From IMG/VR virus record IMGVR_UViG_3300021400_000138, positions 96,001-160,000 of that record: a DNA stretch of 64,000 nucleotides; one strand, 5' to 3'. Shown in pieces: positions 26,615 through 63,772 of this stretch (the stretch's first letter is position 1; each line of letters starts with the position of its first letter). Origin of the DNA: a virus. Taxonomy: Duplodnaviria; Caudoviricetes. The notes beneath the pieces were generated by a model. That model was not told where the DNA came from. It worked only from the letters and a program-made list of their open reading frames with translations, and made no database searches. A program made the translations under genes and the position numbers.

Positions 26615-29600
26615 TTATCTTGCTCTGCCAGATTTTCGTAAATCTTTTGCCTGCTCTGAATTCACATAATTTACAATATTATTTAAAAACTTTCTGTTCT
26701 TTGCAAGATCTGATGCAACTTGTTGAATCTTATCAAGAGTAGATTCATCTACGTTTCCATTGACTGTTATTAAGCTGCTAATGTTTACGTTATTTGTTGC
26801 AGTATTATTTGCAATATTCTTTATAACTTCTGCTTGTTCTTGGTACTTCTTAAGTAATTCACTATTTGCATTCATTATGTAATCACGTTCATCGTTACTG
26901 GAGAATAAATCCGCATTTGATTCTATTGGTTTTAATGTACCAAATGATGTTTCTAAATAACCTTTAGAGTCTTCGTATTTTTGTATCTCTGAACGGATAT
27001 TATCCATTTGCTCTTTCGCTTGTTCGATATATTTATTAAGACTATCCTATATGTTATTATTATTTTCTGTATTTTCAATCTTAGCCTATTTTATCTGATC
27101 AACTATTTCTTCAATCTGATTATTTGCATTCTCATAAGAATTAACAATTCTATCAGTGTTTGCATCTATATTTGCCGGGATTTGTCTAATTGGAACAACT
27201 AATGATTCTATTTGGTTCTCTGTTGTTTTAAATCCATTATCAACCACGGAAACAATGTCTAGAACATGTTTTTCTATTTCTCCATCTTTCATTGCCATTC
27301 CAAGATTCATAAGTCCTTTTGTAATATCGGTTGGAATAACTCCTTCGCCACCAGAAAATGGCATAAATGTTCCTCTTCCTGTTGTTATAATCTCAGGGCC
27401 TTTTTCCCAAATTTGAGCAATACCAGGAGCGGCGGAAAGAGTACCTTTTGCATATCTTCTGTATGATATACCAGAAAGACCGCCTTTTGATTTCCAATAA
27501 TCATACGAATAATTCATTTGCTTTTTGATTGAAGAGGTATCAATTTTAGACTTATTCGCATTCCAATTTGAAATTACATTTTTTTGAGTGCCGTTTGCTC
27601 CACCCTATGCTGTAAGCTTCTTTCTATTAACAACAGCGTCCGCAGCTTCTTGTGCAGTGTTGAATCCTAAAACACTTCTGAAATTCTTTAATGCCATATC
27701 AGTTATAAGGTCTAATATATTTTGAAGTGATGTACCATCTTTAGTCCACCCTTTTACATTTACTTCTTGTCTTTCACTAGATGTTTTGGAAGCAGTAGTA
27801 ATTATTCCAGATCTGCCTCCCGAACTACCTGAACCACTTGATCCGCCTGAACCAAAACCACTTCCACTAAATAAACCGCCTCCTGAACCAGGTCCACCAG
27901 TACTAACGACACGAACAGTATTCGCAGCGGAATTAATAATATTCGCGCTATTTGAAGTCGGCTTAATATAAGAAGTGGAAGCCAAATGACTTTCAGATTG
28001 TTGCTGAACAGCTACATCTTTTGCTTGAATTGCCTAGATAACCCTATCAATATTCGTGGATATTGCACTTGCTGTACGTTCTGGAATACCATTTGTTATT
28101 TCTGAAAATCCATCTTTTATTGCCGTCATTGCGTTTGCGCCGTTTTCAAGAGTTGCCTTATTTGCGGTATAATCCCTGATTGCACTTGCAACTTTCTCTG
28201 TTTCTTGTTGGACGGCTCCAGTAATTGTTCCAATTTTTTCAGCTTCTGAAGCAGAAAGATTATCATAATAATGAACCATTTTTTCCGCAGCTGCCTCAAG
28301 TTGATCTTTATTCGGAATAGCTGTGGTATTTTCATGCTGAAGACTCTCAACGCCAACTAATGCCGAATTTAATGTGGGTGAGAACGTTTTAAGCCATGTA
28401 TCGATTCCAGCATTTGTTGCGGTTAAATATTTCTCCAGTCCAGTTGACAAATCATTTATTGTTCCAACAACACTGTCTGTATTAATCTTTAAATCTTTTA
28501 TAATGTTTTCGTAATTCTCATTTAAGTCATCACTAAGTTCACTAAGACCTTCAATCCGCATATCATATACATGTTGTTTTACAGTTTCATCAAGATCATC
28601 TTGAGATTCAGAAAGTCGAGCTTCAAGACGAGCTTTCTGGGCTTTTGATTCTGCATCTGTACATTTATCTTTACATAGTTCGCTACACTATGCCGTACTT
28701 TTGTACGCTCATGCTTTCACATGAGATGAGACTATATCACCTATGCATTAAATACATAGTCTACCATTTTGAATTACCAAACGCTTGCAATCCTACGAAG
28801 CTACACTCATCGCTTCTAGTCGTTGAACTTTATCCTATTCGGATCTTAGCTGCTGGTTGCCCAATATTTATTATTTTCAAACTTTCGCACCTGTACATAT
28901 TTCATTACTATGCTGTAGTTAATAAATCTCTAAGGGTTTTCCAGACAATTAGATAAAACGCCCTACATTTAAGGCCTTCCAGTGCGCGAATCTATTGCTG
29001 TATTAACTGTATATCTTTTGTTTTCGTTTTAAGTTGCCTGTCATAATCATACATCTCTTTTTGTTTCTGAAGTGCTTCTTGCCTTGCTTTTATTAATTCT
29101 TGAATATAACTAATTTCTTGTTTATACCTAGATGTATAAATAGAAATAATCTTCATTCTATAGCTATTTGCATCTTGTAATTCTTTTCTCGTAGAATCAG
29201 TAATTTCTTCTCTCTTCTTAAGATATTCTTCTGCCGAATATGAAGAATCATTTCTCCACCTTTCTTCATTAATTCTATATTCTTCTTGATACTTATTAAG
29301 TGCCTATAATGAACGTGTATATCCACTCATTGCGGCTTCTGCTGTGGCGAGACCGAACTGTGTATATTCTCCATCATCTGTAAAATACATATCTTCCGAG
29401 AACATGCCAACCAGCTCGTCCAAACTATCACGAAGTTTATTTACCTTGGCTATATATTCTTCGATTGGCTTAAAGTATAATACTTCACGAGATTCATCTC
29501 TTAATTTGTCAATTGTAATAATAGTATCATTCATTTTGTTTTGTAATTCATAAAGTTCATTTTGTGCCGTTCTATATTCTTCAGAATCTTCTCCGAGAGA

Positions 29601-32600
29601 AACACCAATTTCCGCCAATAACTATGATTGAACCTCCATGGACTTCTTCATATTATTATATGATTGATCAATATTATCAATCTGTGCCTAATAATTTTGG
29701 GAGAGGGTAGTAGTATCAGTTATAAGATTTCCATTTGCATCCATGCTACGACCAAGTTCATCAATAGTTTCACGAACTTTTTGATATGTATCCGCAAGCT
29801 TTTCATTATTTTCATATAATGATCTGTAATAATCGCCAGCATTTGAAAATTCTTTTGGATAAAGCGTTGCCATTGATTGAGCAAGTTCTCCTATTTTTTG
29901 CTTATTATTTTCTGTTTCTTTATCTAATAAATCTGTTACAGTTTTAAGTTCGCCAGCTTTTGTTTCTAGATTTTCAATATATGCATTCCACTGGTTAATA
30001 TAACTATATACCCATCCATTTAAATTTCCAGGTAATGTAGAAGTATCAATTTTTGTTCTATTTCTAACGGCATCAATGCCAGCCTTTTGAAGAGCAGGAT
30101 TATTCTAAATATTTGTTATTGCTCCCATATATTTTCCAGCATAAGCGTCAACCTTCTTCACATAAGAATCATAACCCTTTTGTGCTTTTTCCATTTCCGC
30201 ATTTAATTTAATTATAGTTTCATTTGAAACCTTTGTTTCTTCTTTTATTTTTTCAAGTTCGGTCTCAAGATATCTATTTGCTCCAACATATGTTTCACTC
30301 GCATTATAATAATTAGAATTCTGTATAGCCTCGCTTAAATCTTTAGATAAATTTTTACTCTTTGCGCTACCAAATGTTCTACTAGAAACATTATAATTAG
30401 ATTGCGCAGAAGCAGCCGCTAACTATGCGTATATAGATTGTTGCCCACGAGTACCAATATTGTTTCCTATTTGAGTAACGGATTGATACTTCTTTGCAAT
30501 CTGATTAAGCTTTTCTTCTGCCTGTTTAACGGGAATATTTGCGAACTCTTCATTAAGATCATGAACTTTTGATCGAGCGGAAACATACTCATTTTCTACG
30601 TTGATTATTTGAGTCATTGCTTTGCGATATTCTTCTGAACCATAACTGATTCTTCCTTGCGTCATATTAACTTCAAGTTCTTCTCTTAATCTTACGGCTT
30701 CTATTCTCAACTTATCTGCTTGTTGTTTATATCTGTTCATTTCCTTAGAATAGCTTTGTGCAATCTATGTGCCGTCCTCAAGATAAGAGCCTGTTTTTAT
30801 AATATAATCACGAGTTGTTGCCAAACTATTGGCTAAAGTTGCTTGCCAATCAGAAAGAGATTTATAATAATTATCAATATTATCCATTTTATCAAATACT
30901 GATTGAACTAAAGATTGCGCATATTCCGCAGCAGATTGGTTAGCTTTTTCAAATTGCTCATTCATTTTTTCTTGGGCTTCTGTTACTGCGCTTGACAATG
31001 CATTTGCTTCAGCCAAACACTGATTATAATAAGCAATTTTATCTGCGTACATACCAAATTGAGAAGCATCAAGGAAATCTCCATTTTGTAAAGCATCAAA
31101 TACATAACTTGGGAGCATTAATCCATTAAATGAATTTTTCGCTCCATTTAATCTGCTGTTAGCCGTTCTGGATTGACTCTTTAAATCATTGTAATTAATT
31201 TTGGACTGTTGATATGCAGCATTATTCTCATTTACTTGTGAACTCAAATTAAGTAGACTCTTTTCAATTTGATAATTAATTGACTCATATGTTTTTCCGT
31301 AAGATTTGATTAATTTCTTTGCTTGACTGCCACCAAATATCCCGGACAATACTTCATTAAGTTTATTAATTCCAGATTGTCCAGTCATAGTAGATATAAA
31401 AGAATTAATACTTTGCATCGAGTTCTAGAGTTTACTAATAGCCTTTTCAAGATCTTCAAATGGAAGATTAATCATATCACTGTAAAGACTACGAAGCTGA
31501 TTTGATAAAGTCTAAATTTGATTAGAAGCATTTATAGCATTATCTGTTAATTGCATATACTGTTGGGCGGCTTCATATAAGGCTTTGCCATGATCGGTAG
31601 ATGTATCAATCTGGTCAATTCTAAAAGCTCCATTTCTAAGATCTTCCAAATTTATTTCATTAGCAAGACTAACCGAATACTCTAATTGAGTTGATTGTAC
31701 AACTTTTAATTGATGTTGAAGATCATTAACCTAATTTTGTAACCATCTGTAATAATCGTTATCTCGATCACTTCCCATAGCGTTCATAGCGTTCTGATAG
31801 TCCGCTAATGCATACTACAAGTTCTTTTCAGCGTTTTTGTCAGTGGCGTAATATTTGTGATCAAATGCCTCTTTTATTGCCTCCTGTGTATACGTTGTAG
31901 CCGCTTTTGAATTAGCCCATAATTCCTAACTAATAGCATTGATTTCACTTCCTATGAGTTGTTTCTTGGTTGCGGTATCAACATATTGTGTAATTTTGTC
32001 CGCAATTTTCTTTGTTTGATTAGAGAAGTATTGAAGTCTTCGCTATACAAGATCAATACTCTGGAACGAATATTGAATCTGATCAACTAAATCATCAAAT
32101 GCATTTCCTACATTATCGGCGGCATCTCCAACATCACGGGCTGCATCTCCAGCATCCCTTGCTGAATCATTATAATCATTAAGATCATCAACACCGTCCG
32201 CTAATTTCTGGAAGAAATCATGAGTTCCTTCAGGTAGAATATTAAAAAATCCAGAAGCAGATGCCGTTGCAAATGAACGCATTCCTTCATGCATTGTCCC
32301 GCTTGCAAATGCCGATTGACCACCTACAATTTTTCCAACTCCGTGGGCCGCACTATGCTTTATAAGATCCTCTGTTTGCTTTGCATTCAGAATAATTTCA
32401 CCACGTTTAAGGTGTTCTACGTGCATTCCGGGAGGAAGTAATTCCCATGTGCCATCCCGTGTAATTCTGCTTTCCTGGCCGATTTCATTTACGAGCGCAT
32501 CTTCGTCTTGCTTTAATGCCACATCACCTCTTGCATGAGCTGGAAGCGAGAAAGTACCAGCTGCATGATGTGCGAATTTATCAGCAAGAACCGGATTGTT

Positions 32601-35600
32601 CTACATATTTGCAGCAAATGTATCATAATTAGTTTGTATATTTGCTTGAATTTGTGCTTGAATAATATTAGATTCAATTCTCTCTTTTAATTTATTATAT
32701 GCGTCTTCTGCCTAATCGGTCTCACCTTCAACTTCAACAGTTGGATGTTCCATTTCAATTGCATCTTTAAGATTTTGAATATCAACACTTCCTTGTCCAT
32801 CTTCAGCATGAACAACAAATCCTATTTCTTCCCCATCATGTTCTTCTATACGTTCTAATAGTTCAGTAACATTATCCTCGCCCTCAAAGTATATTTTAAG
32901 ATCTCCTTCATTTTGAATCATATCAACTATTTGTTTTAATTCTTCTGTATCTTCTGAAGAAATTTGTAAGCTTCTGTCCCAATTTAATTCAACAAAACTA
33001 TCGAATAGCCCCTTTAACTAATCTATAAAATCCAAATTAGAATATTCTTCCGTATGATCTTCCTAGAAATATGGATTGCCATTATACACTTCTCTATCAT
33101 ATTGCTTCGGTTCCGGTGCATTTCTTAATTCTGATGCAACATATTCTACTGCCATATTAAACGCTTCTTTTGCAACACGCTCAGAAACACTAGCTATTAT
33201 TGTTTCTATCATAGATGGATCTGTCTGTGTCTATTCCTCTTCGTAGTAGTCATGCTCGACATAATCACCATAATAATCAATATCTTTTTCTCTGTTACGT
33301 TCATCTATCTTTTGCATTAATTCATTAATAAAACCTAATATTGTTGTGTCTTTAGAAGCTTTATCTTCTTCGGCAACTTCAACCTGTACTTTTGGTTCAC
33401 CTTTGGCAAGATTTTCTAAAAATGCCTTTGCAAGTAACGCTCCACCAACAACCAGACCGGATTGTATCGCTTCGCCTATTTCTTCTTTTGTCCAAGTTAT
33501 TGAGCTACCCTCTGCGAAAGACGGAAGAGTAGATTTGCCGCCAACAATTTTTGCATTAGTTGAAGATTTACCAGTTTGTCTTAATTGTTCCATCTAACGG
33601 CTATTTAAAATTACATCACCCTTTTTGAGATGTTCTATGTGCATACCTCCTGGAATCTCATATAATAAACCATTTCGAATTATCCCCTCATGGCCAGGAA
33701 GTTCATTTACTAAAGCATCTTCATCATGAGCTAAATGTCCATCTTTTATATTGCTCCCACGGGCATAAGCACCTAAAGTACCAACCGCATGATTTGCAAA
33801 TTTTTCTGCAACGTTTGGATGTGCCTGGGTAGCTAAATATTGATTAAATCCTTCATAATTAGCTTGGAATCTTATATTAATAGCATTGGCTTCCAAACGC
33901 TGTTTAACATCGTTATATGCTTGTTCAACCGAATCCATGGTGCCCACTATATTAGCATTTATTTCTGTATCATTTAAATATTTTTGTAAGTCTTCAATTC
34001 TTCCATCAAATATGCCCATATCATCGTGAATAACAAATCCTATTTCTTCGCCTTCGTGCTCTTTAATAAAATCAATAAGACCATTAGTATCATCTTTTCC
34101 TTCAAAATAGAATTTTATATCACCATCACCTAATTGCTATGCTTTATTAATTATATCAAGTAATGCTTCTGTATCGCTTCCGGTTACTTCAAGTGTCGCC
34201 TTTGCTGCCCCAGATTGGCTTAATCTATCCCAAAAACTCATATCTGCTTTTTTCTCTTCTATGGTCTAATAAGATTCGCCTTCTTTTTGTTTCCTTTCTT
34301 CTTCCCATTGTGCCTTTATTACTTCAAATTCTTCAGATTGACGGTGTAAATTTTCCATCCCTTTATCAAATGCTTCAGCAGCACCCATTATAATATCCGC
34401 GCCTACTTCAGCCATACCCTTATATACTACTTGTTCTATTGGAGAATAATCAGCTAATGGGTCTGGTTTTTCTGGTTCCGGTTCTGGTTCCTTACGTTCA
34501 GTGCCGAGCAAACTATCTATCACATACTGTCCTGCACTTTCTGCTATCATTTTAGGAAGAACATTGATCGCTGCATCTTTAACTCCTTCTTTAATATCGC
34601 TAATCATACCAGGAAGCGCATCTTCTAAAGTCATACCACCATATTCATTAAGGTGCGAGAGTATAGTTTCCACTAATTCATTTGTTTTATTGATTGCTCC
34701 AACCTCTTCTGAATTATCTACAGCTATTTCTGTTTTGTTGTTATTAGAATCCATAATGGCCTTAATTACTGCATCAGCAATTTTACCCCAGGTAAGATCA
34801 GAAGAACTGCTTCCCTCAGCAAATGATGGAAGAGTAGCTTTGCCACCAATAATTCTTGCATTTCCAGATGCTCTGCCAGATTGCTTTAGCTGCTCCATCT
34901 AACGAGTATTTAAAATTACATCACCTTTTTTAAGATGCTCAACATGCATTCCTCCTGGAATTTCACGAAGTTGACCGTTGCGGATTATTCCCTCATGACC
35001 TGGTAATTCGTTAACTAAAGCATCTTCATCTTTTGTAAGCTTTCCATTTTTAACATCCGTTCCTTTTGCATAAGCGTTTAATGTGCCATGGGCTTTATAA
35101 TAAACAATGCTATTTTTAAGACTATTATCATAAGCAGCTTGCGCTTGACTTGGTAATTGATGACTTGGCATTGGGCCGATAGGTTCTTCATAAATTTGCA
35201 TTTGCACTGGCTATGTCAATGGATTAAGATTCATATTATTTTGCTGTATCTGCAAAGTATTATTAAACGGATCCATATTTGCATCAACTGCTTGTAACGC
35301 TGCTGGATTAGCTTCTATCTGTTGCACTCCATCTTGTACTGTTGCATTAAGTGGATCAATATTTCCACCGACTTTTACTTTCGGGAATTTGCTAGGAACA
35401 GTTTCTTCACAAAATGTATTTAACACATCAACTGCATCCTGGTCATTTGCGCTAAGTATAAATTCTATTTCTTCACCATTATTGTCTTTAATATAATTTA
35501 TTGCTTCTTCCACAGTAGTAGCGATGCCATTAATTATAATGTCTATATTACTGTTTTGGCTAATTTCTGTAATAGCAGAAGATAATTGCTCTACATCGTC

Positions 35601-38600
35601 TCCAGAAATAGTAACATTAAATACAGAACCATCACTTGCTTTTTGTTGAATAGTATCCTGCTTATTTTCTAATGCGTTTAATCTCTCCATTCCTTCATCC
35701 GTATCAATATTAACTTCCGTTTCTTCTTCTGCATTTTCCTGCGTCTCATCAAGTGAACTATTTAATGTACTAAGATTTGCCTCTGCTTCATCTGTATTTG
35801 CTCCTTTAAAACTGCCATCTTCTGCAACGTTATTTTGTGTTTCGTCAACTGTTGTGTTCAACGAATCGAGTTGACTTCCATCGGCAGTAACAACAAATTC
35901 ATGTTTACCATTAATCAAGGCAATAGTTTTATTTGTTTTTGCTACGGCATCCGTAAATGATTCGCCTTCTTTTCCAGTAATAGTAATACTAATTACGTCA
36001 CCATTTCTATATTCATATGCCTCATCGACCACATCTTCTACGCCATCATTTGTAGCTGTAATTTTGATTTCAACGCCATTTTTGTCGGCATATTCTTGTA
36101 GATTTGTTAGCATACCGGATATGTTCTAATTGCTAATTTCTTCATTTACTTTGAAAGCAACTTCAATCTCTTTTACTTCTGACTGTTGAATATCATCAAC
36201 AACTCTCGGGTCAGATCTATAGGTTTCGAGTGCTCTACTAACCTTTTCTTCGCTCATTCCCATATTTTGTAGTTTCTCTTGTATTTTAGAAAGAGATATT
36301 TTATCAGCGGCATTGTCTATTGCTTCTTGCGTACTATTTGTAAATGCATCTTTATCTACACCAACCTTAAGACTAATATTATTAAGAGATTCAAGTAATT
36401 CATTCACTTGTTCCTGGTCAAGTTTTACAGTCATTGAATAATCACTAGAAGAAAGCTCAGAAATTTGACTCTTCAAATCTTCGAGCTTCTGTTCGTCCGC
36501 ATATACATTAAGGTCGAGATCGAATTCTTTCGCAAGTGTTTCATCATCTCCCTCGGCAATTAATTTTTGCCAAAACTCAACACGTTCACCCTGATTGCTT
36601 ACTGGCTCTAGCCTTGTTCTAATAACATATTCAGCATCAAAGTTATTCGCAGTAAGACCGAATTTATCAAACGAATCAATAATTGCTGTACCAAGTTCCA
36701 TTGCCTATTTTTTACTATATCCAAGACGATCACCAATTGCTATAATAGCAGCCTGCGCATCTTTTGCGTCTTGTGATACATCTGGAAGTAAAGAGTAATC
36801 TTTTGTCATATCAATCGTCTTAAGGAATTCCGCACTATAAGCACGAAGACTATTTAATAGTTGTTCGTCTTCTTCGTCCATATGTTCATAAACATCACTA
36901 ACTCTATGTAATACTTCGGCAAAGTCATCTGCTTTTTGAAGTGCTGATTTACCAAGACCGTCGTCTTGAATATTTGTATACATTCCTAAAAGCAATCCTT
37001 TTGTATCCCTTCCTCCAGCAAGTAATTGATTAGCATATTCTTCTAATGCTTCATAAGAAAGGACTTCGCCGTTTGGAAGAATTGGTGTAAGAGCAACGGC
37101 AGCCTATCCATCTTCACTAGGGAATGTATGACTATATAAGGTTACCAGATCATCTACATTGCTATCATCAATTTGAACAGCATATCCAGCACTCGCCATA
37201 TCTTCTAAGCTTAACTTTGGTCTATTTCTTAAGTCGAGCATTCTCTGTGCTGTAGCTTCTTCCATCTTGCCGAGTGTATCTTCATAAGAAGCCTGAACAA
37301 GAGAGAATGTACCATCTGCATTTTCAGTAATTTCCATACCGAGTCTATCAGCCATCTTTTTGGCTTCATCATAGAAGTATGTCACGATTTTTGGATCAAA
37401 CATATTTTGATTTGCATAAGCAAGAAGATCATTAATGCCAGCAATATCGGCGTTATAAGATTCTTCTGTAATTAACGGTTCATTCGCATATTGCTGCGCC
37501 ATTTCATCAAGATTTCGATACCTCTCAATTAATTTATCAATATCTTCTTGACGCTCTTGCATTGTTATATCTGAAACACCTTTAACTTCACCATCTGCTC
37601 GTTTTACAATTTTTTGTGCAAGCTCTTGAACAGTTTCTATTTGTTGGGCCGTTGCATCAACTTCATTTAATACAGAAACAACTTCAAAACCATAATCCTT
37701 TAATGCCTCAAGAAAAGTTTGTATAATTTCTTCATCTGGTGCGGCTTGTGGTCCTCCCCATAATGTTCCGAGAGCCTGACTGATTTCTTCCAGATCGGTT
37801 GTTTTGAAAGTAAATACTCCAGCATTATCTTCAGCAATTCCTAAATCAGTAAGATCTTCCATGAAATTTAATAATCCCATACCATCAGGTCTAAAATATT
37901 CTGTAAGCCACGGATAAATATCTTCAAATGCTCTAGCAGTATTGCGATCTTCTTGAGTTAACATCTCAATAGCCGTCTTAAAATCGTCCGTACCGATAAG
38001 ACCAGCATCCCTCATCTTTTCAAGATTCGCCAATTCATTCTATATGGTATCATATTTTGATCTTCCATTAGGTGTTTGCAACGCCGCTTGCCACTTCGTG
38101 AATCCTGACATAGATTCTTCGATTGCATTTTGCGCTTTAGCATATGCCTGTACCTCAAGACCAATTGCTTTTATTTCGGAACGAATATTTTGCAGATTCT
38201 GTTTAGCTGCATTACGTTTCGTCGTACCATCAATATCTACCTGTTTAGATAATGTTTTATATATGTTCTGTTGTGTTCTTAATTGAGCATTAAGTTTAGA
38301 CATCTGGGCAAGAATCCCCGTAGAAGATATCTTTCTTTGAAGATTAATATATCTTTCAAGTTCGCGGAAGTTTACCTTGATTCCTTGAGCAGATCTATAG
38401 AACATGCTAGAAAGATCAATATTAGAAGATATTTCTTTTAATTCACTAAAAGAGGAGATTAGAGCATCCATTGAATCTTGATCAATACTATCTGTCAATG
38501 ATTGATTAATTACAGCGTTTACACCCTCAAGAAGGCCCTCTGCCTGAAGTGAATAATGATGTGCTATTGATTTATCATAATCCTCAACCGTAGCAGATAA

Positions 38601-41600
38601 CTCCTGGATTGTTTTCATATTTTCAATGAGTTGATCATTGATTTTATTATATTCTGTGGCGTTATCTCCAACAATTTGTCTCTGTTGTAAAAGATATTCA
38701 TTTTGCTGCTCAATAACACTGATTTGTTGCTCCGCATTATTTCGTAAATCTGTAAGATCATTCTTAGAATAATATTCTCGATCCGCTGTCTTTTGATTTC
38801 TATAAATTTCAAGTTGAGATTGCTGCCGTTTTAATGCATCAAGTGAACGATTTAGTCCTTCTAATTCAAGACCACCATTAAGCATCTCAACATATTGGAG
38901 CGTTTCATCGTTTAATGTTTGCTGTTCTTGGGTTAACTGTGCAATTTTATCTTTGTAGCCATTTGCTGTATCGATATTATTCTCTGTAATTTTCCCGAGG
39001 TCATTAAGTTTGTTATTATAGTCTTCAATTAATTTATTATTTGCTTCAGATATTTGTCTATTATAATCAATTGCTTCCATATAATCTGAAGCCTCAGCAG
39101 ATTGTCCACGATTTTGCGCATTGGAAATTCTGTTTGTAACAACGCTTTTATCGGTATTTAATCCCGCAATTTCAGATTCAAGCTTTGCAAGTTCTTTTTC
39201 GTCCCAGGTTGGCTGAAGGATTACCCGCATTTGTTCGATTTTTTCTTTCCAGGTCTCGAAATTCCAAGTTGCAGAATCTGTTTCCAGTGATAACCGCGCA
39301 ATAATTTCACCAGTTTTGCCCGTAGAATCCGCGTCTATAAGAGCTTGAAGTTGGGACACAACCTAATCTGCATATTGTGCTTGTGCTGTCTATCCCATAA
39401 CATCCTGGCCTTTAAATTGACCTATAATAGAAGCACGAATCTTTTGCATGACATCTTCAATACTAGAATCATCTATTTTTACTTCACCAATAATGTTATT
39501 AAAATATTGACTAGCTAATTCAATTTCTTCTGCGCTTGGTTCTCTTCCAAGACCGTCTTTTACAAGTTTGGAATAATTTTCAGCAAACTTTTCTGCTTCA
39601 TCGCCACGCATCTTCAATAAGCCTTCAAGCAAATGATCGAGACTGTCGCTATATTTCATAAGTTGTTCTGGATGAGCACCTACAATATCTGCAATATTTA
39701 CAGATTCACCATTGTTTATAGAATCTATATAACCTTGAATTTCTGTATTTAATGCCTTGAAATTATCTATAGTCTTTTTGAGTCCCTAGTCTGAATCATC
39801 TTTAAGAAGAGAAGAGAAGGTTGTATCATTTTTGGGCAGTTCAATTTCTTCTTCGACTTTCTTCTTATATGAATTATAACTACGTATACTTTCGTCTCCG
39901 AGAAGTGCATATGCTTTTTCTACATCGGCGATGTTCCAAGAGGTGATGATTTTCATTTTTTCTTCATCTGTAAATTGATCACCAAATCTTTCGCCAAGTT
40001 GAGCAACAACCGTATTAAGTTTATTTTGATATTCATCAATATTTGCCTGAAGCCCAAAGATATTCATATAATCAGCATATTGATCTCCGAAGATTTTTTG
40101 CATTGTAGTTTCAACCTGGGTTTGATAATCTTGAAGATTCATTTTCGTTGGATCCAATTCAAACATCTTTGATAATTCAGTTTGAGAATCCTCGCTTAAT
40201 TGGTCTAATACTCCAATAATATTATCATGAAGATAATTATATAATGCGTCATCGCCCTCGCCAATGTTTGTATAATCTATATTATTAAGATTCTGCTTTA
40301 TATATGATTGTATATTAGAATCTAATTGTCCAAAGGTATATGAGCTATCTAAATAATCTCTGGCAGTTTCCGCTATATTGTGAAGAGTATCTTTTTCTTT
40401 TGAGTTAAGCGCATTAATCTGTTGATTTACTTCACCAAGTTCTTTTTCATAACCGTCTGCAATTTGTTTTGGAATATTCTCATTCCAAATAGAAGCCATA
40501 TATTCTCGAATAGTATTCGCAACCGTTTGATCTGGTGTTATTTCAGAATCAAATATATCAGCTAACTCTTCATAAAACCTTATAACTACATCATTTTCAT
40601 TTTCAGTTACCATATCCATAAATCCATTATCTTCGAATAATTGTCTCAATGGTTCGAAAGACTCTTTTGATAATCTTACGCTAGTACCAACATAGGCGTC
40701 CTCTTCAGAAAATGGATTAAGATTATTTAAAATGGAATCTCTTCTTGCGGCAAGTTGGTTCATTTGAATGTTGTACGTTTCCATTTGAGCAACAAAGCCT
40801 TTAAATGCTTTTCCAAGGTTTTCTCCAATTTCAACATTAGCAACATCAAGTGCAGCTTTATGCATTTGGTTGAGTTTATCTGTAGCATCTTCAACTGTTC
40901 CGCCAAGATCTAATATTGCGTTATTTTGCGAATCATATCCCTTTACAAGATATGGATATGTTTTTGCAATCTGATTAGAAAGATCTAAGTATCTTTGATA
41001 TTCGTCATTGGTCAAAGATTCGTTTTCATTTAAACTGGAAACACCAGATCTTAATTTTGTATATTCTTTAGCTATCTCATCAAATTTATCATCAAGTTCT
41101 TTTTTGTCTGGTTCTTCTACGCCGATCTTTATTAATATATCATCTATTCCTTTTGATTTTTCATTTACGGTATCCATTACTTCTGTTATCTTTTCTTGTG
41201 CCTTTTTGCCTTCTTCAATTGCAATGTTTGTTGCATTTATTAGTTTATATAAACCTGTTATAACTAATTCTATAACTTTCGTTATAGCATACATTGCTAT
41301 CATATTCAGGCCAGCACCAAGAACATTCTTTAATACTCCACCTGCTTTTGATGCAATTTTTTGGAATGTAGATAATCCATTAGAGGATTGTTTTAACCAG
41401 CTCTAGAATCCAGAGAAAGATTTGTCACTTTGATTTACATCGAGTAAGAATTTCTTCGTAATCTCATCTGCATCGCCTGTTTTTTCTATGAATTCATTAA
41501 TTCCATCTAAATCAGATGGATCAAGATTGAGTATTGTATTCTCGTTTACATTGAACCAATCTTCAAAATCACTTGCTTTTGGTTTCTTAAAGAAATCTTT

Positions 41601-44600
41601 AAGTCCAGAGAATAGTCCATTAGACTTTCCGTCTTTTCCAAAATTCAAAACTCCAAGACCAAATATTTGTCCTACGGTTCCAACAATACCAGAAAGTAGT
41701 ACCTTGAATGCACCGCCTTTATCTAGTAGTGTTGTAAATGCTCCAACAAGACCTGTCGCTCCATCCAGGAATATTTTTATCCAGTCGCTGTCAATTGATA
41801 TTGCGGCGAGTTCCTGGAGGCGATTTTGAAGTTTTGCAAGTTTGCCGTCGATTGATTCGAGGTATTTATCGAGTTCTTGTTGAGCGGAACCAGCATAATC
41901 ATTTTCAGCTGCTTCCTTTACTTGTTCTAATACGTCTCCGTTAAGTAAAATTGAAGAAGCAATATTCATTTTGTTACGTATTAATATACGAATAGGTCAT
42001 TTCTGCCTATTTCTGCATTTTCCCTCTTAGATTATATATGCAGATCAGATCATACCTTTACCATATTTTGGTACCCCCATACGTTTAATTGTTACCTTTT
42101 AAACTATGATCGTTACGGGCTTAGTTTTACCCACGGTATTTTCCATCTCTGGAATTCACCGTTTTGAGAGGGTTTAAATATTATATATTTCTATATAATG
42201 GAGCAATATTACTTTTCACTCCTATTTTTTCCACGTTGTATTTACAAGGGCCACAACTCCTTGCGTGTTTATAAACACCTTATACTTTCATATAAGACTA
42301 GACTATTTCTTCATCTCCACCATTATGTGCTGAGAGTACACCTTTTCGATTTAATGGATTTTCACCAACGCCTTTGTGATTGCGCCCTACTCCTATTGAC
42401 AAAATGTCCACCTCTGTGGGATAGTCGTTGAACCTTTATCCTCGTCTTTACGTTAGAATACTTGGCTGCATGAACAGCGATTTCTCTCCAAATAGAAGAG
42501 TAGTACTTAGGCTTTTAACCATATACCATCCTTACGTTGTTTCTACTTTCGTACCATCATATTGTGATTTCTCCAATATTGTGGTGTAAGGCTTTACGCA
42601 TTACCTGCAATTAGATGTAACTTATCATGCATATTTCTATACATGTAGGCCATTATTTAGCCAAAGCTTCTACCAAAGCATTTGCTCGGTTCTAACCTGT
42701 TTGTTTATCAGTTTCTTGTATCTCTTTATACACCTTAGAAATATCTAATAATATGTCATATGTACTTCTAAGATTTCCATTATTGTCTAATACAGACACA
42801 CCTTTAAAATTATTGCTTGCAACAGCAGTATAATCTCTGATCAATTGATCGGTTTTTGACTTTGTACGTACTACGAAATCGTCAATGTCTTCGCCAAGTT
42901 CCGCGATTTCATTCTTGGCTTCTTCTGTCAATCTGTTACTTTCGGTGAGCCACACCTACTGACTATTAATAAATAATAGCGGCTAGTCATTTCTGGCTAA
43001 CTCTCACATTTCATAAATTGTGGAATATATTGTGAGTTCGGACTGTGTATTTACCTTATAAAAAGGAACAACTTAACCTATTATGTTGCCACAATAGACA
43101 TCGCAGTCTCTACGGATTTATATAATATATTATACATATTCATAACGATAACCTTTAATTGTTTTTCTAATACCAGTTACCACTTCATAAATTTTAAAAG
43201 CAATAGTGCCGTTTTCTTTTGCAGCCTATAGCATATTATCATAGGCCGCCACACTCTTATTATTTAAATCCAATTTTCTAACCGGATAATAAAATTTTTC
43301 TAATCTATTTTCAGGTATTATATAATCTCCAGATTCATATAAATCTTTTGGTACCCAATAATGTTCATTAGAATAATATCCCTTCGTATAAATTGCAGAG
43401 ATTATTCCGCTAATATCAATGGAATTATCTCTCGCAGCATCCGCATATGAACCATATTCTTTTTGATAATTCCGATGCATATCTAACATAACTATTGGTC
43501 TACGAGTACTTTTAATATAATCATCAGGATAATACAATTTGTTTTCATGAAGAGCATCATATATCCTATGCGCATTTATGCATAATTCGTCAGCTATTAC
43601 CTGGACTTTCATTCCAGAATTTAATTTATTCTATATATCTACAAGATTTAGTTTTTTGTTATAATCCATTTTGACCCATGATGGAATCTCGTTGATATCT
43701 GGAAAGAAGTATTGAATATATTTTAAAACCGGAACGCCATCAATCTCGTAGTCATAAAATTCATATCCTCGATTTATCCAGTATTGTTTTTTAATATTAT
43801 CTCGAACTTTCTATCTTTTAAATCTATGCCATTGTCCTTGTACTTCAATAGCTATTTTTAACCTATGGTTCACAATATCTGTCGGCATAACCTTTCCAGT
43901 ATTTGGATTAACGCAAGATGGATCTTCTTCTATTGAATCAGGATAATAATGTTTATAAATTTGTTTTAATACAAGAGCATGTAACGATTCTAAAGTATCA
44001 TCACAATTAGAACATGAAATTCCTTTATGCTATTCATCGTTTCTTCTTAAATTATATAGTGATTTCTTTATTATTTTACCACATCTTGTACATTTAAACT
44101 CAAGTATGGAATCTTTGGTAATAATATCTTCTTGATTTGAAATACATTTAAAATTTCCATTAAATCGTATTTCTAAGTATTTATTTATATTATAAAGTAT
44201 GTATGGATTTTTTATTGCAAACCATATGGGATTTTTCTTTTTATCATTATTTATATAATTTTCTGCTTTAACAGATGCGTAATATTGCCCATCACTTACT
44301 GTTACCAGCTGTTTTACAGATTTAAAATCATGCTCTTTGGTAATTAATATTAATCCAAATTTTTCTAAATTGTTTTTAAGTTTATAATACTTTTCCATTT
44401 TTTCTCCTTTATAAATTGTTATTTGCATAATATAACTTTCCTCGACTTTGGCATTTCCACTATGCTCTTAGTCGATATAGTTGTTTATAAAAAATATATT
44501 ACTATATTTCCGGGCTTCCTTCCTAGACCCGCAATCCTTAAACTAATAGTACGTACCCCTGCACTTGTCTTACTCATATCTTGAGTAATTAAATTCCCCG

Positions 44601-47600
44601 ATGTGAGGAGACCCAACGTTTCATCTAAACTATTATTCTGTGTCATTAATACAGCCGCAGCATTCTGAAGACCCTATGCGAGTTCATCAGTACTGACGGC
44701 AAAATTGTTTGATCTGTTACTTTCAGCAATATGCCTACTAACTATCTTACCAAGATAGCGGATAGGACGTTAATCCTATCTCTGCATCTTTATATATACA
44801 TGCAGTCCAGACTGTATATTACATCCATAAAGGATGGATAACTTCATAATAGCAATTACTCACTATTACCCGCAGTCGTTACGGTATAAATAATAATAAT
44901 ATTATATTATAATCATTTTTACCTCGGTGTTGTCCAATTTAGGATGTTCACCGATATAGTTATCAAGTTGTGCAATATGCACAAAAACCAATTTTAATTT
45001 TCATTAAAATATAGGCAACATTCACCTACCAAATTGAGTTTGTCTACGATAGAATTTGGATCTATATCTTTATAAGCTTGCGTAGCTGATACAAGCGATT
45101 GTGTAGCATCATTTATATTCTCAAATTCAGATACATTTAACAACTTCGTAGAAAGAGCAGCCATTTCTTTTGCTTCAGAGAAAGATTTTCCTAGCCTTAA
45201 CCAGTCAGCAGTAGAATCTTGTATGGCTTTTGCAGTCGTTCCTAATTGATCCGCAATATCAAACGAATCAAACTGATACTTCTGTAAACTGGAAAGCGTC
45301 TCGTCACTAACCTTTCGCATTTCAGTCAAAGCTGTATCAAGTTCTCTTACAACAGTTACACCCTGTCTGAAGATGCCAATTACTTGATAAAAACTAGCAA
45401 ACGACAACAAGTATCTTCCAAGGTTACCAAAGGATCCCTTCAACTTCTCTGCAAAACTTTTTCCAGTATTTCCAGCATCTGCTGCAGCGGCAGCGATCTT
45501 TTTAAACGTATTTACTAAGTTATCACCCTCAGCCGCACTTATCTATTCGCTACTAGCTAATCTGTCATATATAGGTTTAATCTCTGCTATGGCTTGCTTC
45601 GCTTTTGAATTATTTGCCATCCATTCAGCCATGGACTTAGCCATATTGGATCGATGATTTTGATCCATCCACTGAAATGCTCCACCTGTATTTACGTTTT
45701 TAATAGCATTATCTATTTCTTTAAAACCAGCTTTGACTTCGTTTACACTCTGTTGATAATCTCCGTTCCAATCAATAGAATCTATCGTTCTTTGTAAATT
45801 ATGATACATTTCTGTTATTCTATTTACTTCATCCGCGTATGCCGCTGGCCTATCACTTTCATCTCCAAGATTATCTACCTATATTCCAACGGATTTATAG
45901 GTTCTATCCAACGCATCTTGTATAACCTGAGTCTAAATTTCTTTTAATTCCGCATCTAAAGATTCTGCCATATCCTGGCTCATATCCTTAAATACACCAG
46001 TTGATTTTCCTGCGTCATCTACGGCGCCTTGGTATTCCTTGATTTTCTTTCTCGCATCTTCAAAGTATTTAGTATATTTGTTAAGCCATTCCTATTCGCT
46101 AATTGTTACCTTCCCGTTACTTTTCTTTTCGAGGAGTGTATAATATTTGGTTGCCAAAGCTATAAGATTGTTATATCCTTTTTCAACTGTATCAAAACCT
46201 TCTGGCGTAATATTCGCGGCACGATTTCCTGCATCTGAAATTCTCCCACGTTGTGTTGCCAATTCATCCGCAGTAAATTTTGTAGAACCAGAACTTACTT
46301 TTTCTTCAAGAGTCTATATTGCCTTTTCAGCTTCATCTGCTTTTCTCTTTACATCTGCAAGACGAGTAGTAAGAGACCGTGTAACATTTTCTCCGTGACT
46401 TTGACGTTCTGACAACGCCTCAAGTTTTTCCACGGCAACAATATAATCATCAATCGCTTTTGTCGCATCCTTTATTTCTTTTGTTTCTTGAGAATCAACC
46501 TTTTTAGCTTGTTGTTCAGATTCCCTCTGCGTTTTTCGTTCTGCTCTTTTCCTTTCATTTTCCGCATCTCTATCAGCTTTTCTTTGTGCGGAATCCGCCT
46601 TGTCTTGGTCTTTCTTTTCATCAGATAACTTTCGTTTTCTCTCAATTCTTTCTAATGTATAATCGAGACCATCAAGCGGAGCCAAAGCCCTTTTTTCTAT
46701 GTCTTTCGCCATCTTTTCGTTAAATAATGGATTTTCATAAAGGGCATCGGTTAATTCATATATTTTATCAGCTAATTTATCTATTTGATCAAGATCTCCT
46801 TCTAGCATCTTTCCAGCTGCCACATCTTTTTTCAAGTCTATATATTGTTTTACTACTTCAGATAATTCCCGAAGCCTTGCTTCTTTTTCCTCAATGTTTC
46901 TATCTTTAGCTTCTGATTCACGCATACTTTGTTCATACTCTTTTTGATCCGCAGCCATTTGATCAAACACCTTTTTCTACTTTTTCGCCTGCGCCTCTAT
47001 ATCTTTTTCTGAAGCCTAATTAACATAATATAAATCGGTATTTGTTTTCTATTCTTCTTGATCCAAAAGGGTACTCTCGGCAGCTTTCCTCGCTCTGTCA
47101 AATGCCTACGCTAATTCATCAAGCTATTCCCGTGTTAAATTTGATTTACCAACAAATTGTTCAAGACCAGTTATAGATTCAAATATTTGTTTTGATAATT
47201 TTTCTATAGATTTTGGAGTTTCAGCTTTTGATAATTCATCTATATTATCTTTTACTTTTTTAATATTATCAGCAACGTTGGAATAAAGCGTATTCGTCTG
47301 CGTAACTGTACCATTAGGTCTAAGCGTAACATTTCTTTTTGTACCACCCATATCAGTGATATCAAATGTGTCCGTTATCTTTCCCTCTTTATTTATCTCT
47401 GATTTTTTTCTTATAGAAATGATATTATTCATCTCTATTCCGATTTTACGCAACTTTTCAATAAGCGCATCATATTCCTTGGAACCAGGCATAAATTCCA
47501 TTTCATCCGATCCAAACATACCACGAATTTCTTCTGCAACCTATTGTACTTTGGCCTGTCTTACTGTATCTACTGTTTTATCTATCTCGGCCTGTGGTCT

Positions 47601-50600
47601 GCTCAATATCTCAGCAAAAGACTTTAATGCATCCTTACTTTCGGAGATTTGCTGGAAAAGATTTCCGAATAATCCCTCCGTACTTGTACTAGCAAAAGAT
47701 TTGGTTAAATTCTGTAATTCCGTTTCAAAGCCTTTAATTACCTCTAACTCTTTTTGAATAATACCACTAATGGTTGTAATATCTTGAGTAAAGGCTTCAT
47801 TCTTTTTGTTAATGGCATCAGGCACTTTATTAATCAATTCACTTTCAAGCTCTCCAATAATTTGCTTTTCTTGGTCAACAACGTTTCTAACAACTTCAAC
47901 TTCTCCATTGAAAGCCGCATTTTTTGCACTTATAGCTTCTGGAATATCAACTTTCAACTTATTCTCAAGATCAGCAATGCTTAATACTTCATCTTTTACA
48001 TTGTCTGCTGGAACATCCCCGGCTTCGATCTGCAATGATTTTAATCCAAGAACAGATTGAATACCCTGAATAAGCCCATCAAAACTCTCTGAGAATTTTG
48101 TAATGCTTTCAGTTGATCCCTTAAAGAAATCTGTTGTCTAAAGCATTTCACGAAGAGAAGAAATAGAAGTAGTAATATCCTGAATTTGTTTCAATATAAC
48201 AGGAATACCAGATTCATCATCTATCATTTTGAACACATTAGAGATTTCTTGAATTTCTTTTAATAAACTTTCAAGACTTCCAAGCAACTCTTTTATTTGC
48301 TATTCGTCAAAAGCAGCAGCAACTGGTTTATCCGAACCGTTTGCAACTTCTTCTTGTGCAGACGCAACTTCTCTAATCGCACCAGCCGCGCCTTTAGCCG
48401 CCGCACCAAGGTTTTCCATATCCTCTGTTTCTGGTTCTATAGAAGTAGTAGGAGTAGATGGTGAGGTTTCAACTGGTTCAGATATTACTTTTTTCAACTC
48501 CTCTTTCTTTTTTTGAATTGCTGCAATATAATCTTCGTAAAACTTAATTGTATCTTCATTTTTAGATCTCTTTCTTGTTGCGCTTGCTTTCTTTTCTTCC
48601 GCTTCTAGGGCATCAATATCCGTATAAGAATCGATTGAAGCCATCTTTTGTTCGCGTTCTAACTCAACCTTAGTTTTCTTTTTGGCGGGAGCTTCAGTGG
48701 CTAATTCTCCAGAAGTAGAAGAGGAGAGTTTGGTCCATTTTTCTGTTACTTCATCAAATGTATATCCAAGTTCTTCGGCCTTTTTATTAAGTCTTTCTAT
48801 AGCTTGTTCGAATGGAAGATCTTGAGTTGTTATTGCCGCTTCCAGATCTTCGACGGTGTTTTTTAATTCTTCTGGAGCTTTTGATGCTCGGGCGTTGAAC
48901 TTTGTTGATAAATCTTCTGGGGTTTCATTAGATATTTTCTAAATATCCGCCTTAAATTTATTTTTCTGCTATATCAACTAAACAATTTGATTTTTTGCTT
49001 CTAATTCAGAAATTGCGCCATTGTAATAATCTATAAGCACCTATGCAAATTCTTCTGTTTTATTTTTTAACAATCTAACAGTGGCACCAAGAGCCTCATT
49101 AGATACCATCGACATTTCAGGATTTGATGTTATACTAAGGCCAGGTAAACCATATTGCTCACCATAACTATCACCTAAAACTCCACGATGCCCAGCAAAT
49201 CTAAACAAATACTATTCAACTGTCTCTTCCGGATTAGAAATATTATCTACGCTCGCAGAATTATTAGCTAATTTAAACACTTCTTGTAATGCTAAACTGA
49301 GTTCCTTTGCTGACATGGTGGCTTTATTTAACCCTTCAGAAATCTATTCCCCCATCTATTGACCAGTTTGCCCAGCTTGAACTTCTGACTCAGAAATAGT
49401 TTCTACTTGAGATGGGAGAATAGTAGTACCCGATGAAATCGGATTTTCACCAGATGTTTCGCGTTGTGTATCATTTAACTTCCCAACAGAATCTGCTGCG
49501 TCATCAGCAGCGGCAGCAATACCTTTTAACTTTTCTTCTGAAGATTCTGGAACAACAACGTTAATAGTCTATATCTTTTCAAAGCTTTCAACTAAGCTTT
49601 TTGTCTTATCAATCAATGTTTGCATTGCCGTGTTTAGCTATTCAAGATAGGAAATATCTTGATCAGATACGCCAAGTCCTTTTGCAAGAGTATTTTGTAG
49701 TTGCTATAACGCTTGTGCCAACTCACCAACGACACCTGACGCCTCTTTGGCTTCTTCTTCTCCACGCTTATCAATTGATTTTCCTAATATTTCAAAGGCT
49801 TCCTCTCTTAAAGATTTTCTATTATCTTTATGAGATGCGTTGATATCATTTATTTTTCTGATCTCAGAAGCAATATAAGACATCTCTGTACCGGGAGCAC
49901 GACTGGTTCCTTTACCTGTTAAATATTTGTAAACATCATAATATGGATTTTGTTCTAAATAAGAAGCAATTCTTTTTTGGTTCTATTCTTTCCATTCCTC
50001 AAATGAGCTAAGACCAGAATCCAAATATTCAGAGCTAAATTTTCCCCAAACATCGTCTTCCAACATTTCACTAATAGCTCTCTCCAAATTCTTCATAAAA
50101 TCCATTACTGCCTATATTCTTTCTTCTGGGTCTTTATTTTGTTCTATTACAGAAGATCTGCTGAAATATTCAACTATATCTCTTCCTGACGTCATCTACC
50201 TAAGATAATCTGACGAGGTAAGACCAACGAGAAATTGTTGCGGATCGCCTTCGTCTCCGCCCAATATTCGTTTATAAGCATCGCGGAATATAGAAAATAT
50301 CTTATCATAGGCATCTGTGTATCTCTTTGCTTGCCTCCTCCATACGTCTTCCTCAGCTTTAATCCTTTGTTGAACATCAAGGGAAGTGTCTTCTCTTAAA
50401 TTAACGTTAAACTCACTTTTCCCTATCTTTCTTTGCATTGCGCGAAGTCGTTCCCTTACAGACATGGTATCATTTCTAGCCGCGCCAGAACTACCATCAC
50501 CGATTACTCCGATTGATAAAGAAATATTATTTAATATACCAACGACTTCATTAAGTGCATTACTAAATGCTTGAATATTATCAATACTAAATGCGTCATC

Positions 50601-51935
50601 AATAGAAGAACCGATATTATTCAACTATTGCAATAAATCAGATAATCCACTTTTATCATCAATAGTGTCAAAACTATTCGAAAGTACCTAAACAGACTCC
50701 ACTAGTTGCTTTATTAATTCTATAAGAGCCTTTATTTCTTCCGATCCCCATGCATCACCTGGTTCAAAGTTTTGAACTGCCTCATTTAGTTTATTTTGAA
50801 TATATTCTACCTTGTCTGCATATTCTTGGTATTCGCGTAGGCGATCTTCCATATTTTCATTACGCAATTTATAATGCTCATCATCACCCGTATTATATGA
50901 ATCAACAGCGTGTTCGTCCCAATACTTAGCATCATCTAATGCCTCATCACGAAGCGCCTGAAGTTCTTTTAATGCCTTCTTATATCTTTCTATCTTTGGA
51001 AGATCCTCATCAATTGTAAACGAATAATCATTGACTTCCCAATCATACTCAATTTTATTCTTCCCTTTATATTGTGATTCTGCTTTTTTCTTTAATTCTT
51101 CAATAGATCTATAAGCTTTCTTTTGTCTTTCTGCCGATTCTTCTGTTGCCTTTGCCGCTTTCTCGGATGACTCCGCTGACTTTTCGCCAGCCTCCTCGGT
51201 TTTCTTCCCTGCATCTTCAGCAGCTTTTCCTTCTTCCTTCATAGAATCCGCTGTGTCTCCCGCAGCTTCTGCGGCTTTTGCCCATTCAATAGTATTGATT
51301 TTCGGGAGTTCTATCTGTGCCTTTTCAAACATTTCAAAGGTAGCACCAGCTTCTTCTCTTAATTCATCAAAATATCCAAAGACTCTTCTAAGATTTTCAA
51401 CTCCAAAAGTATTTCCCTTTTCTGGTTGTAGCGCCTCTAATTCTCGCATCCTATCTACAAATTCTTTTAGCTGTGGACTAACTTCTTCAAGATTGCCACC
51501 AAGTGCCTCAAAAGCATTCGCATATCTGAATACTTCAGTTGACGCTGTATTTTTAGGATCAACCATTTGATCTATAGTAAAGTTATTTTCTTTCTGTATA
51601 TTGCCAAGTTTATTCCATGATTCAATCAAGGAAGCCTAAGCATTATTTTGTGTTTGATAATATTTTTGTGCGTTTGTAACTCCGCGAATTGCGCCTGGTT
51701 CTGAAAGTTTTCTGGAATAGGCTTCCTCCATTCTTCGTTTAATTTCATTTACCTTTTCTTCATTACTTGGATCAAAGTCTATTTTGATTTTAATATTCTC
51801 TACTTTTTTGCTTGTAGCTCTTATTCCTGCTTCAAGCTCATCCGCTTTTTGTATTATTTTGTCTACTTTTTTCGAAAACTAATCATCATTCTTAATAATC
51901 TCGGCAACATCTATATAACCACTTTTCACACCCAT
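26615..51935 (-). CDS. tape measure protein, ~7473 aa; exons 45024-51935, 44527-44709, 42659-42928, 42218-42232, 28972-41966, 26615-28661; TAG=Gln
   Basis: AAGGAGGTG RBS/ATG 51935; track fragments in-frame across TAGs; splicing restores TMP motifs DKLNLVG|NNFAVSTDELA, RTISLRIAG|TEEAK, EALA|GKNRS|NIASSILLN, ALEGL|TDAESKAQKARL. Confidence 0.88.
28662..28971 (-). ncRNA. group I intron A in TMP (310 nt, no ORF)
   Basis: P1 GCCU/GGGC with U.G at splice site; TTCAACGACTA and GATATAGTC P7 strands; terminal G; removal fixes the frame change between 29304-29618 and 28034-28561. Confidence 0.9.
32250..35600 (-). repeat. three ~406-435 aa tandem repeats inside TMP
   Basis: GEEI.F..., DEDALVNE..G.E.I.R.G...E.P.GMH.EHLK.G.VILN recurs; equivalent Gln codons at 34899, 33594, 32376. 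Confidence 0.85.
41967..42217 (-). ncRNA. group I intron B in TMP (251 nt)
   Basis: P1 GGAGU/GCUCC; P10 AATATT pairs with exon start AATATT; CGTAACGATCA / TATGATCT P7; ends GTAACAAAATG. Confidence 0.85.
42234..42659 (-). ncRNA. group I intron C in TMP (426 nt; boundary ambiguous by 1 nt)
   Basis: AATTGCAGGTAA, GCAGCCAAG, TTCAACGACTA, AAGAAATAGTCT core motifs; P1 GGCU/GGCC. Confidence 0.85.
42929..44526 (-). mobile_element. group I intron D in TMP carrying a homing endonuclease (1598 nt)
   Basis: P1 CGGGU/GCCCG; CGTAGAGACTG / ACACAGTCC P7; ends GTAACAGATTG. Confidence 0.88.
43130..44398 (-). CDS. intron-encoded Vsr/DUF559-like (PD-(D/E)XK) homing endonuclease with Zn fingers and NUMOD1-like repeats (422 aa, 4 TAG)
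   Basis: AAAGGAG RBS; CTRC, CSNC; PTDIVNHRLKIAIEVQGQWH...RDNIKKQYWINRGY; YGSYADAARDN repeats; fragments 44030-44428 and 43226-43612 in one frame. Confidence 0.8.
44710..45023 (-). ncRNA. group I intron E in TMP (314 nt, apparently ends in A)
   Basis: P1 AGGU/GCCU; P10 TGTT pairs with exon AACA; CGTAACGACTG / TATACAGTCT P7; ends GTAACAGATCA. Confidence 0.85.
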
Positions 51936-63660: not shown

Positions 63661-63772
63661 ACTTCTACCTCCTTAGAGTTGAATCTCCTGATATAGTTAA
63701 ACGCAATGCGGAGAAGCCAGGAGGAGCTTCTCCATATAAGAGTGATCAAGTTCTTATATTTATTGCGTTTGC

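Follow-up and report, generated by a model that had tools for sequence, protein, structure and literature searches.

Tandem group I introns in phage structural genes are already known. According to the summaries in PMC10136302 and PMC11878797, the orf142 gene of Staphylococcus phage Twort (Landthaler & Shub 1999) carries a 23-nucleotide (nt) exon between introns I2 and I3, two highly similar introns of subgroup IA2, and this exon is skipped in a fraction of the transcripts. The locus described here is a somewhat more extreme case. It lies on the minus strand of a 64,000-nt stretch of a Caudoviricetes genome (the window; positions 96,001 to 160,000 of IMG/VR record IMGVR_UViG_3300021400_000138), within a gene that, to judge from its matches to annotated genes, encodes the phage tail tape measure protein. 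It is quite probable that two unrelated group I introns without open reading frames (ORFs), termed C (upstream) and B (downstream), interrupt this gene 16 nt apart, and that each removes itself, leaving behind a micro-exon that encodes GKNRS.

Like Twort orf142, the locus combines a phage structural gene, several group I introns and a short exon whose inclusion needs two independent splicing events, and two apparently complete and independent ribozymes flank an exon of the mature coding sequence. Unlike in the Twort locus as summarized in those sources, the exon measures 16 nt and separates introns of unrelated clades, its skipping would most likely shift the frame, and the arrangement is deduced from sequence. 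Tandem group I introns also flank a 34-nt exon in the 23S rRNA gene of Coxiella burnetii, for which skipping was observed (Hicks et al. 2011, as cited in PMC10136302); that system is a bacterial rRNA gene with a longer exon, whereas the present one is a phage protein-coding gene. Exon skipping has been reported for the DNA polymerase gene of SIOphi as well (PMC11878797). In placozoan mitochondrial cox1, a 1-nt exon between two group IB introns was shown by RNA sequencing (PMC5436844). Both there and here, an ultra-short exon that would result from a second intron inserting beside a first is invisible to gene finders and restores a conserved residue; the cox1 exon is mitochondrial, 1 nt long and established by RNA sequencing, whereas the evidence presented here is comparative. 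Tape-measure genes of Bacillus cereus-group prophages carry the group I introns TMP-IVS1, IVS2 and IVS3 (PMC2504315). As in those genes, IA-type introns have repeatedly settled in the conserved tape-measure core, the P1 helix of homologous introns is adapted to different sites, and one site can hold different introns. Unlike the present introns, the TMP-IVS introns lie far apart, no micro-exon is reported between them, and their hosts use the standard genetic code.

The GKNRS micro-exon and its conservation

Read along the minus strand, the 16 bases 42233..42218 are TGGAAAAAATAGGAGT, or U GGA AAA AAU AGG AGU, which is the third base of an Ala codon followed by codons for G, K, N, R and S. Upstream, exon 3 (42928..42660, minus strand; TEEAKNEIA...NRANALVEAL) ends with the GC of that Ala codon and is 75-84% identical to the relatives in tblastn comparisons; its single in-frame TAG, at 42694-42692, was taken as sense. 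Downstream, exon 5 (28908..41966, minus strand) opens with NIASSILLNGD and runs for ~4,350 codons, open only with TAG as sense. With exon 3, the 16 nt and exon 5 placed end to end, the translation reads ...NRANALVEALA-GKNRS-NIASSILLNGD.

Relatives from a protein-collection search and a scan of metagenome contigs amounted to 31 distinct loci. GKNRS stands exactly before N[IV]A.SIL in 20 of these, and the others have GKNRA, GKTRA or GKTRS, or an intron after the Gly codon. Such conservation between two predicted splice sites appears far beyond chance for five residues. The majority of the related loci have no intron at this position (for example, locus L009 reads GCC GGG AAA AAT AGA TCT AAC), and GK recurs at the same spacing in more distant, intron-less tape-measure proteins, namely those of phages PMBT24 (LIGGKTQVDVVTAIL) and phiCDIF1296T (EAISGKNHINTFFAIM). 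The strongest single comparison is with L033, which reads GCA GGC AAA AAC AGG TCT AAT ATT GCT uninterrupted and whose exon 5 shares 98.7% nucleotide identity with that of the window over the first 600 nt; because the codons are contiguous in such a near-identical relative, the micro-exon can be regarded as real. The protein P0002 of the collection is 99% identical to exon 5. A BLAST comparison of the locus and of introns B and E with 50,697 phage records yielded nothing significant, and neither exon 5 nor alignment A1 retrieved any relatives from IMG/VR.

The same comparison with L033 (669-776, against window 42751..42218) disclosed ~65 strongly diverged nt directly upstream of the intron B site, comprising the micro-exon and the last ~50 nt of exon 3, and the identity leaps to ~99% exactly at the 3′ junction of intron B. 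This diverged patch looks like a trace of co-conversion or recombination that accompanied the acquisition (or loss) of an intron.

The downstream intron B

Intron B (41967..42217, minus strand) is an ORF-less group I intron candidate of 251 nt. The full group I helix order, P1, P2, P3, P4, P5, P6, P7, P7.1, P3′, P8, P7′, P9, P9.1 and P9.2, was drawn by hand, and all pairs form; the extra P7.1 hairpin before P3′ gives a topology resembling subgroup IA. The core helices P3 to P9 stand in group I order with the P3/P7 pseudoknot and have covariation support. In alignment A2 of the intron B clade, 98.2% of the cells are paired versus 84% in shuffles, none of 500 shuffles reaching as high a value, and both sides have changed in 21 of 39 pairs versus 1-4 when the partners are slid (28-45% paired in these slid controls), in a test whose structure was derived from intron B itself. 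Within the clade, P3 is wholly swapped (CCCUC/GGGGG versus UUGGC/GCCAA) and P7 has three compensated versions. The classification of intron B as a group I intron is thus supported by a predicted P1-P9.2 fold with covariation behind it.

The splice sites of intron B are predicted from its guide, AGUAAUAUUGCUCC (42213-42200). GGAGU, the last 5 nt of the micro-exon (42218..42222), pairs with GCUCC (42204-42200), and the U42218.G42204 wobble falls at the splice site, which agrees with the proposal of the preliminary description that the 3′ end of the micro-exon forms P1 of this intron. P10 consists of 9 base pairs (bp) between the start of exon 5, AAUAUUGCU, and the guide segment AGUAAUAUU, contiguous with P1. 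As a whole, the guide, AGUAAUAUU followed by GCUCC, can pair without interruption with 14 positions of the predicted ligated junction of GGAGU and AAUAUUGCU. The intron ends with G at 41967, so that P1 with U.G, P10 on the same guide and a terminal G are all present, and an in-frame UAA occurs three codons into it.

Members of the intron B clade in the relatives are mostly located at another site in exon 3 (L037 3240-3500, L042 3229-3500, L018, L010 and L033), and a homologue at the identical site was found once, in the truncated contig L016. The Rfam model RF00028 scores the clade member in L037 (3230-3432) at 29.2 bits (E 7.5e-4), below the gathering score. A GIR1 match on intron B at 10.7 bits was not used.

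The upstream intron C and its probable cleavage site

Intron C (42659..42234, minus strand) is likewise ORF-less and has a length of 426 nt. RF00028 matches 42279-42669 on the minus strand over the full model (1-253) with 54.1 bits (gathering score 50; E 4.5e-12) in searches of a 5-kb sub-window and of the whole genome. A whole-window run (1-64000) at the gathering threshold with fast filters gave no matches and missed intron C, which is a filter artefact. From the match, another 45 nt of 3′ hairpins run to G42234. The score above the gathering value and the terminal guanosine place intron C among the predicted group I introns, and the claim that the GKNRS micro-exon separates two complete, independent group I ribozymes is borne out by RF00028 for C, by covariation for B and by the conservation across the 31 loci. 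An in-frame UAA occurs two codons into intron C.

Homologues of intron C occupy the same site in L037/L039 (2,003 nt, with a homing-endonuclease ORF) and in L042 (393 nt), and a homologue in L045/L046 sits three bases downstream. The clade has common P2 and P3 sequences and a common terminal hairpin, with compensated changes. At the position aligned to G42234, G is invariant in L037, L042, L045 and the first intron of L038. The first base of the micro-exon follows this G, as expected from the earlier statement that the 5′ end of the micro-exon is the 3′ splice site of intron C.

The exact bond cleaved at the 5′ end would depend on the guide GGCC (42651-42648). C42660 pairs with G42650, and one base from this preferred cut there is a U42659.G42651 wobble. 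A cut after U42659 combined with ligation after G42234 would give GCU UGG AAA AAA UAG GAG UAA, which is out of frame and leads to a stop; the conserved protein requires either C at position -1 with a terminal G or U at -1 with a terminal U. The four clade members compared (the window, L037, L042 and L045) share one pattern: the 5′ exon ends in C before a base N, and the intron ends in G before the same base N of the 3′ exon, N being U, A, A and A, respectively. In all four, the C at -1 has a G of the guide as its partner, the base preceding the 3′ exon is always G, and the first base of that exon (N) can form a pair with the guide base adjoining the partner of the C, giving a P10 that from N measures 2, 3, 6 and 7 bp in the window, L037, L042 and L045, respectively. 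The reading frame in all four demands cleavage after C, with the 3′ exon opening with the third base of an Ala codon. Because four homologous introns show the C-G pair, the invariant terminal G and the matching +1 base, cleavage is most likely to take place after C42660 with G42234 as the terminal base, leaving an exon of 16 rather than 15 nt. The preliminary description had given 15-16 nt with a bracketed T; the ambiguity of one base is real, and the four homologous introns make the shorter length the less likely one. The mature mRNA is identical under both boundary models.

A U.G wobble at the 5′ splice site is near-universal in group I introns, with published exceptions. Here the C occupies the middle position of an Ala codon, so the protein does not allow U. 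A study by Hur and Waring (1995, Nucleic Acids Res 23:4466) reportedly concerns natural group I introns whose 5′ splice site carries a C.G pair; these introns are said to be fungal mitochondrial, and the exon codon apparently fixes the base. As in those introns by that account, C.G replaces U.G and a codon fixes the base; in the present case the feature would extend to a whole phage clade and to two insertion sites, as deduced from sequence comparison. The conserved C-G 5′ splice site in the intron C clade is the least ordinary feature of the locus.

Three further combinations were considered and rejected. A cut after U42663 (EAFGKN), the sole in-frame pairing of U at -1 with a terminal G, is without a supporting P1 and fits the homologues worse. 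A cut after U42659 with ligation after G42221 would shorten the exon to 3 nt, with the loss of GKNR. An exon read as WKKQE, with TAG as sense and G at position -1 of intron B, is ruled out by conservation.

Alternative explanations

Several observations weigh against the proposed pair of self-removing introns and its boundaries. RF00028 does not match intron B at E up to 10, even when 321 nt alone are searched; the model misses the sister introns D and E too, and the failure looks like a limit of model sensitivity. In the window, intron C has a short P1, with 3 bp on the side of the exon, and a P10 of only two wobble pairs. Few group I introns have C at -1, and U42659.G42651 has a canonical look that would suit a cut after the U with a 3′ end other than G. 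The protein search returned no protein predicted from a spliced transcript.

The wobble pair underlies an unlikely alternative in which intron C is cut after U42659 at U.G and ends in U42233, giving the same mature mRNA from a 15-nt exon whose skipping would stay in frame. The classical U42659.G42651 pair adjoins the GGC/GCC helix, and the sister intron E (45023..44710) also seems to end in a base other than G, suggesting that odd 3′ ends may be tolerated. However, this model would require a terminal A and an A-U cleavage-site pair in L037, L042 and L045, yet an invariant G is found one base upstream, and in the 3′ tail of L045 (..AAUACAAUUG) the terminal G lines up with G42234. In every group I intron characterised so far, the second step is known to depend on a terminal G, which also counts against the 15-nt exon.

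It is very improbable that the canonical sites after U42659 and after G42234 are both used, which would leave one extra base and either a broken gene or a +1 ribosomal shift on the A-run UGG AAA AAA UAG. Both canonical signals are present in the sequence, the resulting frame reads ...ALAWKKqE before a UAA stop, and an A6 run before a recoded UAG might in principle promote slippage. Nevertheless, the same one-base offset occurs in three diverged homologues without the A-run (L042 AGGAAAG, L045 AAACGUC), the relatives have G-K instead of W-K, and ~4,350 codons stay open downstream. Least credible is the removal of 42659..41967 as one unit, through constitutive skipping or as a composite intron, to give a protein without GKNRS: published cases in which tandem group I introns of phages skip an exon are the 23-nt exon of Twort orf142 and SIOphi DNA polymerase (PMC10136302, PMC11878797), but here GKNRS is kept in essentially all relatives, a complete core, a P1 and a terminal G are present in each intron separately, the guide of B pairs with the micro-exon and not with exon 3, skipping with the preferred boundaries leads to a frameshift and a stop after 16 codons, and the two introns, unlike Twort I2 and I3, are unrelated in sequence.

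Proposed splicing, its order and exon skipping

In the preferred reading, with two separate introns and a 16-nt exon, the tape-measure gene would have been invaded independently by two unrelated introns, 16 nt apart, in the motif ...EALAGKNRS-NIASSILL, the downstream one between S and N. Each ribozyme would fold independently on one transcript and excise itself. For intron C, the end of exon 3 (..GGC) would pair with the guide GGCC, the cut would occur after C42660 at the C-G pair, and ligation would follow the terminal G42234. For intron B, GGAGU and AAUAUUGCU would lie side by side on the guide AGUAAUAUUGCUCC, with the cut after U42218 and ligation after G41967. The retained 16 nt would restore GCU GGA AAA AAU AGG AGU AAU, and the spliced junction is expected to read GCUGGAAAAAAUAGGAGUAAUAUU, with GCUGGAAAAAAU as the expected sequence of the one-U junction; the peptides expected upon inclusion are EALAGKNRSNIASSILLNGDVLEQVK and ...EALAGKNRSNIASS. 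Retention of either intron should cause early termination at a UAA within three codons of the intron start, so both would have to leave for the ~4,350 downstream codons to be translated.

A constrained splicing order, which the preliminary description had considered, is not supported: among the P1 and P10 helices of B and C, no base pairing that would force an order was found. P1 and P10 of intron B need only bases 12-16 of the micro-exon and exon 5, P1 of intron C needs only exon 3, and P10 of intron C needs bases 1-2 of the micro-exon. Because the two introns use separate micro-exon bases, either can form its helices whether or not the other is gone.

Skipping had also been supposed to remove 15 nt and to stay in frame, which does not hold for a 16-nt exon. 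The predicted product of direct exon 3-exon 5 joining, which lacks GGAAAAAAUAGGAGU, is frameshifted and meets a stop after 16 codons; skipping would be in frame only under the less likely 15-nt model. Little exon skipping is to be expected, because introns C and B show no sequence relationship, whereas Twort I2 and I3 are nearly identical. A bolder and quite improbable proposal is that the intron C clade obligatorily uses C-G, that skipping causes the frameshift, and that the inclusion/skipping ratio sets the balance between a full-length (~7,000 amino acids) and a truncated (~2,470 amino acids) tape-measure protein. If this were true, splicing would be a regulatory step in the building of an extremely long tail.

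The tape-measure gene and its genome

The virus record comprises 185,390 bp with terminal repeats, and the window corresponds to bases 96001-160000. When TAG is read as sense, the stop-free total of the minus strand (stretches of at least 150 codons) rises from 10,077 to 17,798 codons. A 96-nt suppressor tRNA gene with the anticodon CTA, labelled tRNA-Pyl by ARAGORN, is located at 63771..63866 on the minus strand, and the Gln codon CAA of L009 at a conserved Q corresponds to TAG in the relatives L011 and L013. As open coding on the minus strand nearly doubles, a CTA tRNA is present and TAG aligns with CAA in relatives, the phage is taken to decode TAG as sense.

Translated with TAG as Gln, the minus-strand region forms one giant tape-measure gene from 51935 to at least 28908, in which exons 1-5 sum to ~6,800 codons. 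This size implies a tail length of the order of a micrometre if the usual 1.5 Å per residue holds. Exon 5 matches the annotated tape-measure genes of Enterocloster phage PMBT24, Clostridium phage phiCD211 and Thomasclavelia phage TR-TP1. The match of an exon-1 fragment to PF10145 (PhageMin_Tail) is weak (E 7.7e-4, below the cut-off), and the homologous gene of L012 has PF10145 on record. By way of the matches to annotated tape-measure genes, the product is assigned as a phage tail tape measure protein with a PF10145 PhageMin_Tail core.

Exon 1 (51935..45024; 2,304 codons), intron E (45023..44710), exon 2 (44709..44527) and intron D (44526..42929), all on the minus strand, precede exon 3; the intron labels B to E are those of the preliminary description. 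Intron D includes an endonuclease-like ORF (43130-44428, minus strand) that reaches 432 codons only if four in-frame TAGs are sense. Intron E seems to end in A (..GUAACAGAUCA before AACAAUUUU), a junction indicated by its 6-bp P1, which includes U.G, as well as by its 4-bp P10; its homologue at the same site in L042 has a canonical end (..GUAACAGAAUG before AACAAUUUC). The tape-measure gene probably extends beyond another group I intron, which corresponds to an RF00028 match of 51 bits at window positions 28708-28982. Outside the window, RF00028 matches the genome at G000:C1:162436-162781 (59 bits), 163575-163867 (40.9 bits) and 4305-4612 (30.9 bits). If introns B, D and E, which Rfam does not recognise, are included, the phage has at least eight group I introns.

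Short exons in related loci and their significance

Introns are densely packed in the conserved core of this tape-measure family, and short exons are found there repeatedly. L042 has a 39-nt exon, NDMDEAVALITAG (~2334-2372), and L037 and L042 have 30-nt exons at 3210-3239 (TEEAKDEIAD) and 3199-3228 (TKVAVQELQD), respectively, all flanked by group I introns. In L038, positions 183-186 most probably represent a 4-nt exon, AGGU, between two predicted group I introns. The first of these ends with ..GUAAUG at 182 (matching the 3′ part of RF00028, 28.6 bits), and the second, which spans 187-634 (38.8 bits), starts after AGGU, which pairs with GCCU(G). An in-frame UGA at 181-183 excludes a longer exon; the contig is cut, and the upstream 5′ splice site lies outside it. 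The guide GCCUG would pair with AGGU and the C preceding it after splicing, the fifth pair forming only after removal of the upstream intron, which hints at a splicing order in L038, unlike in the window. In two published phage genomes, the tape-measure core is annotated as two coding sequences: those of phiCDIF1296T (L002, record 19735-20320) are ~585 nt apart, and those of TR-TP1 (L003, record 24984-26354) are split by an HNH endonuclease gene. These gaps are probably unannotated introns in the same gene region.

A 16-nt exon is invisible to gene finders, so the present tape-measure gene, like its counterparts in metagenomes, is annotated as unrelated fragments, a problem that is sharper here with TAG also being sense. 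The exons of 39, 30, 16 and probably 4 nt between ribozymes, with intron-less alleles at every site, constitute a natural series. This series could be used to probe the minimum spacing at which two self-splicing RNAs still fold, as well as the latitude that the 5′ splice site has in departing from U.G when a codon fixes the base.

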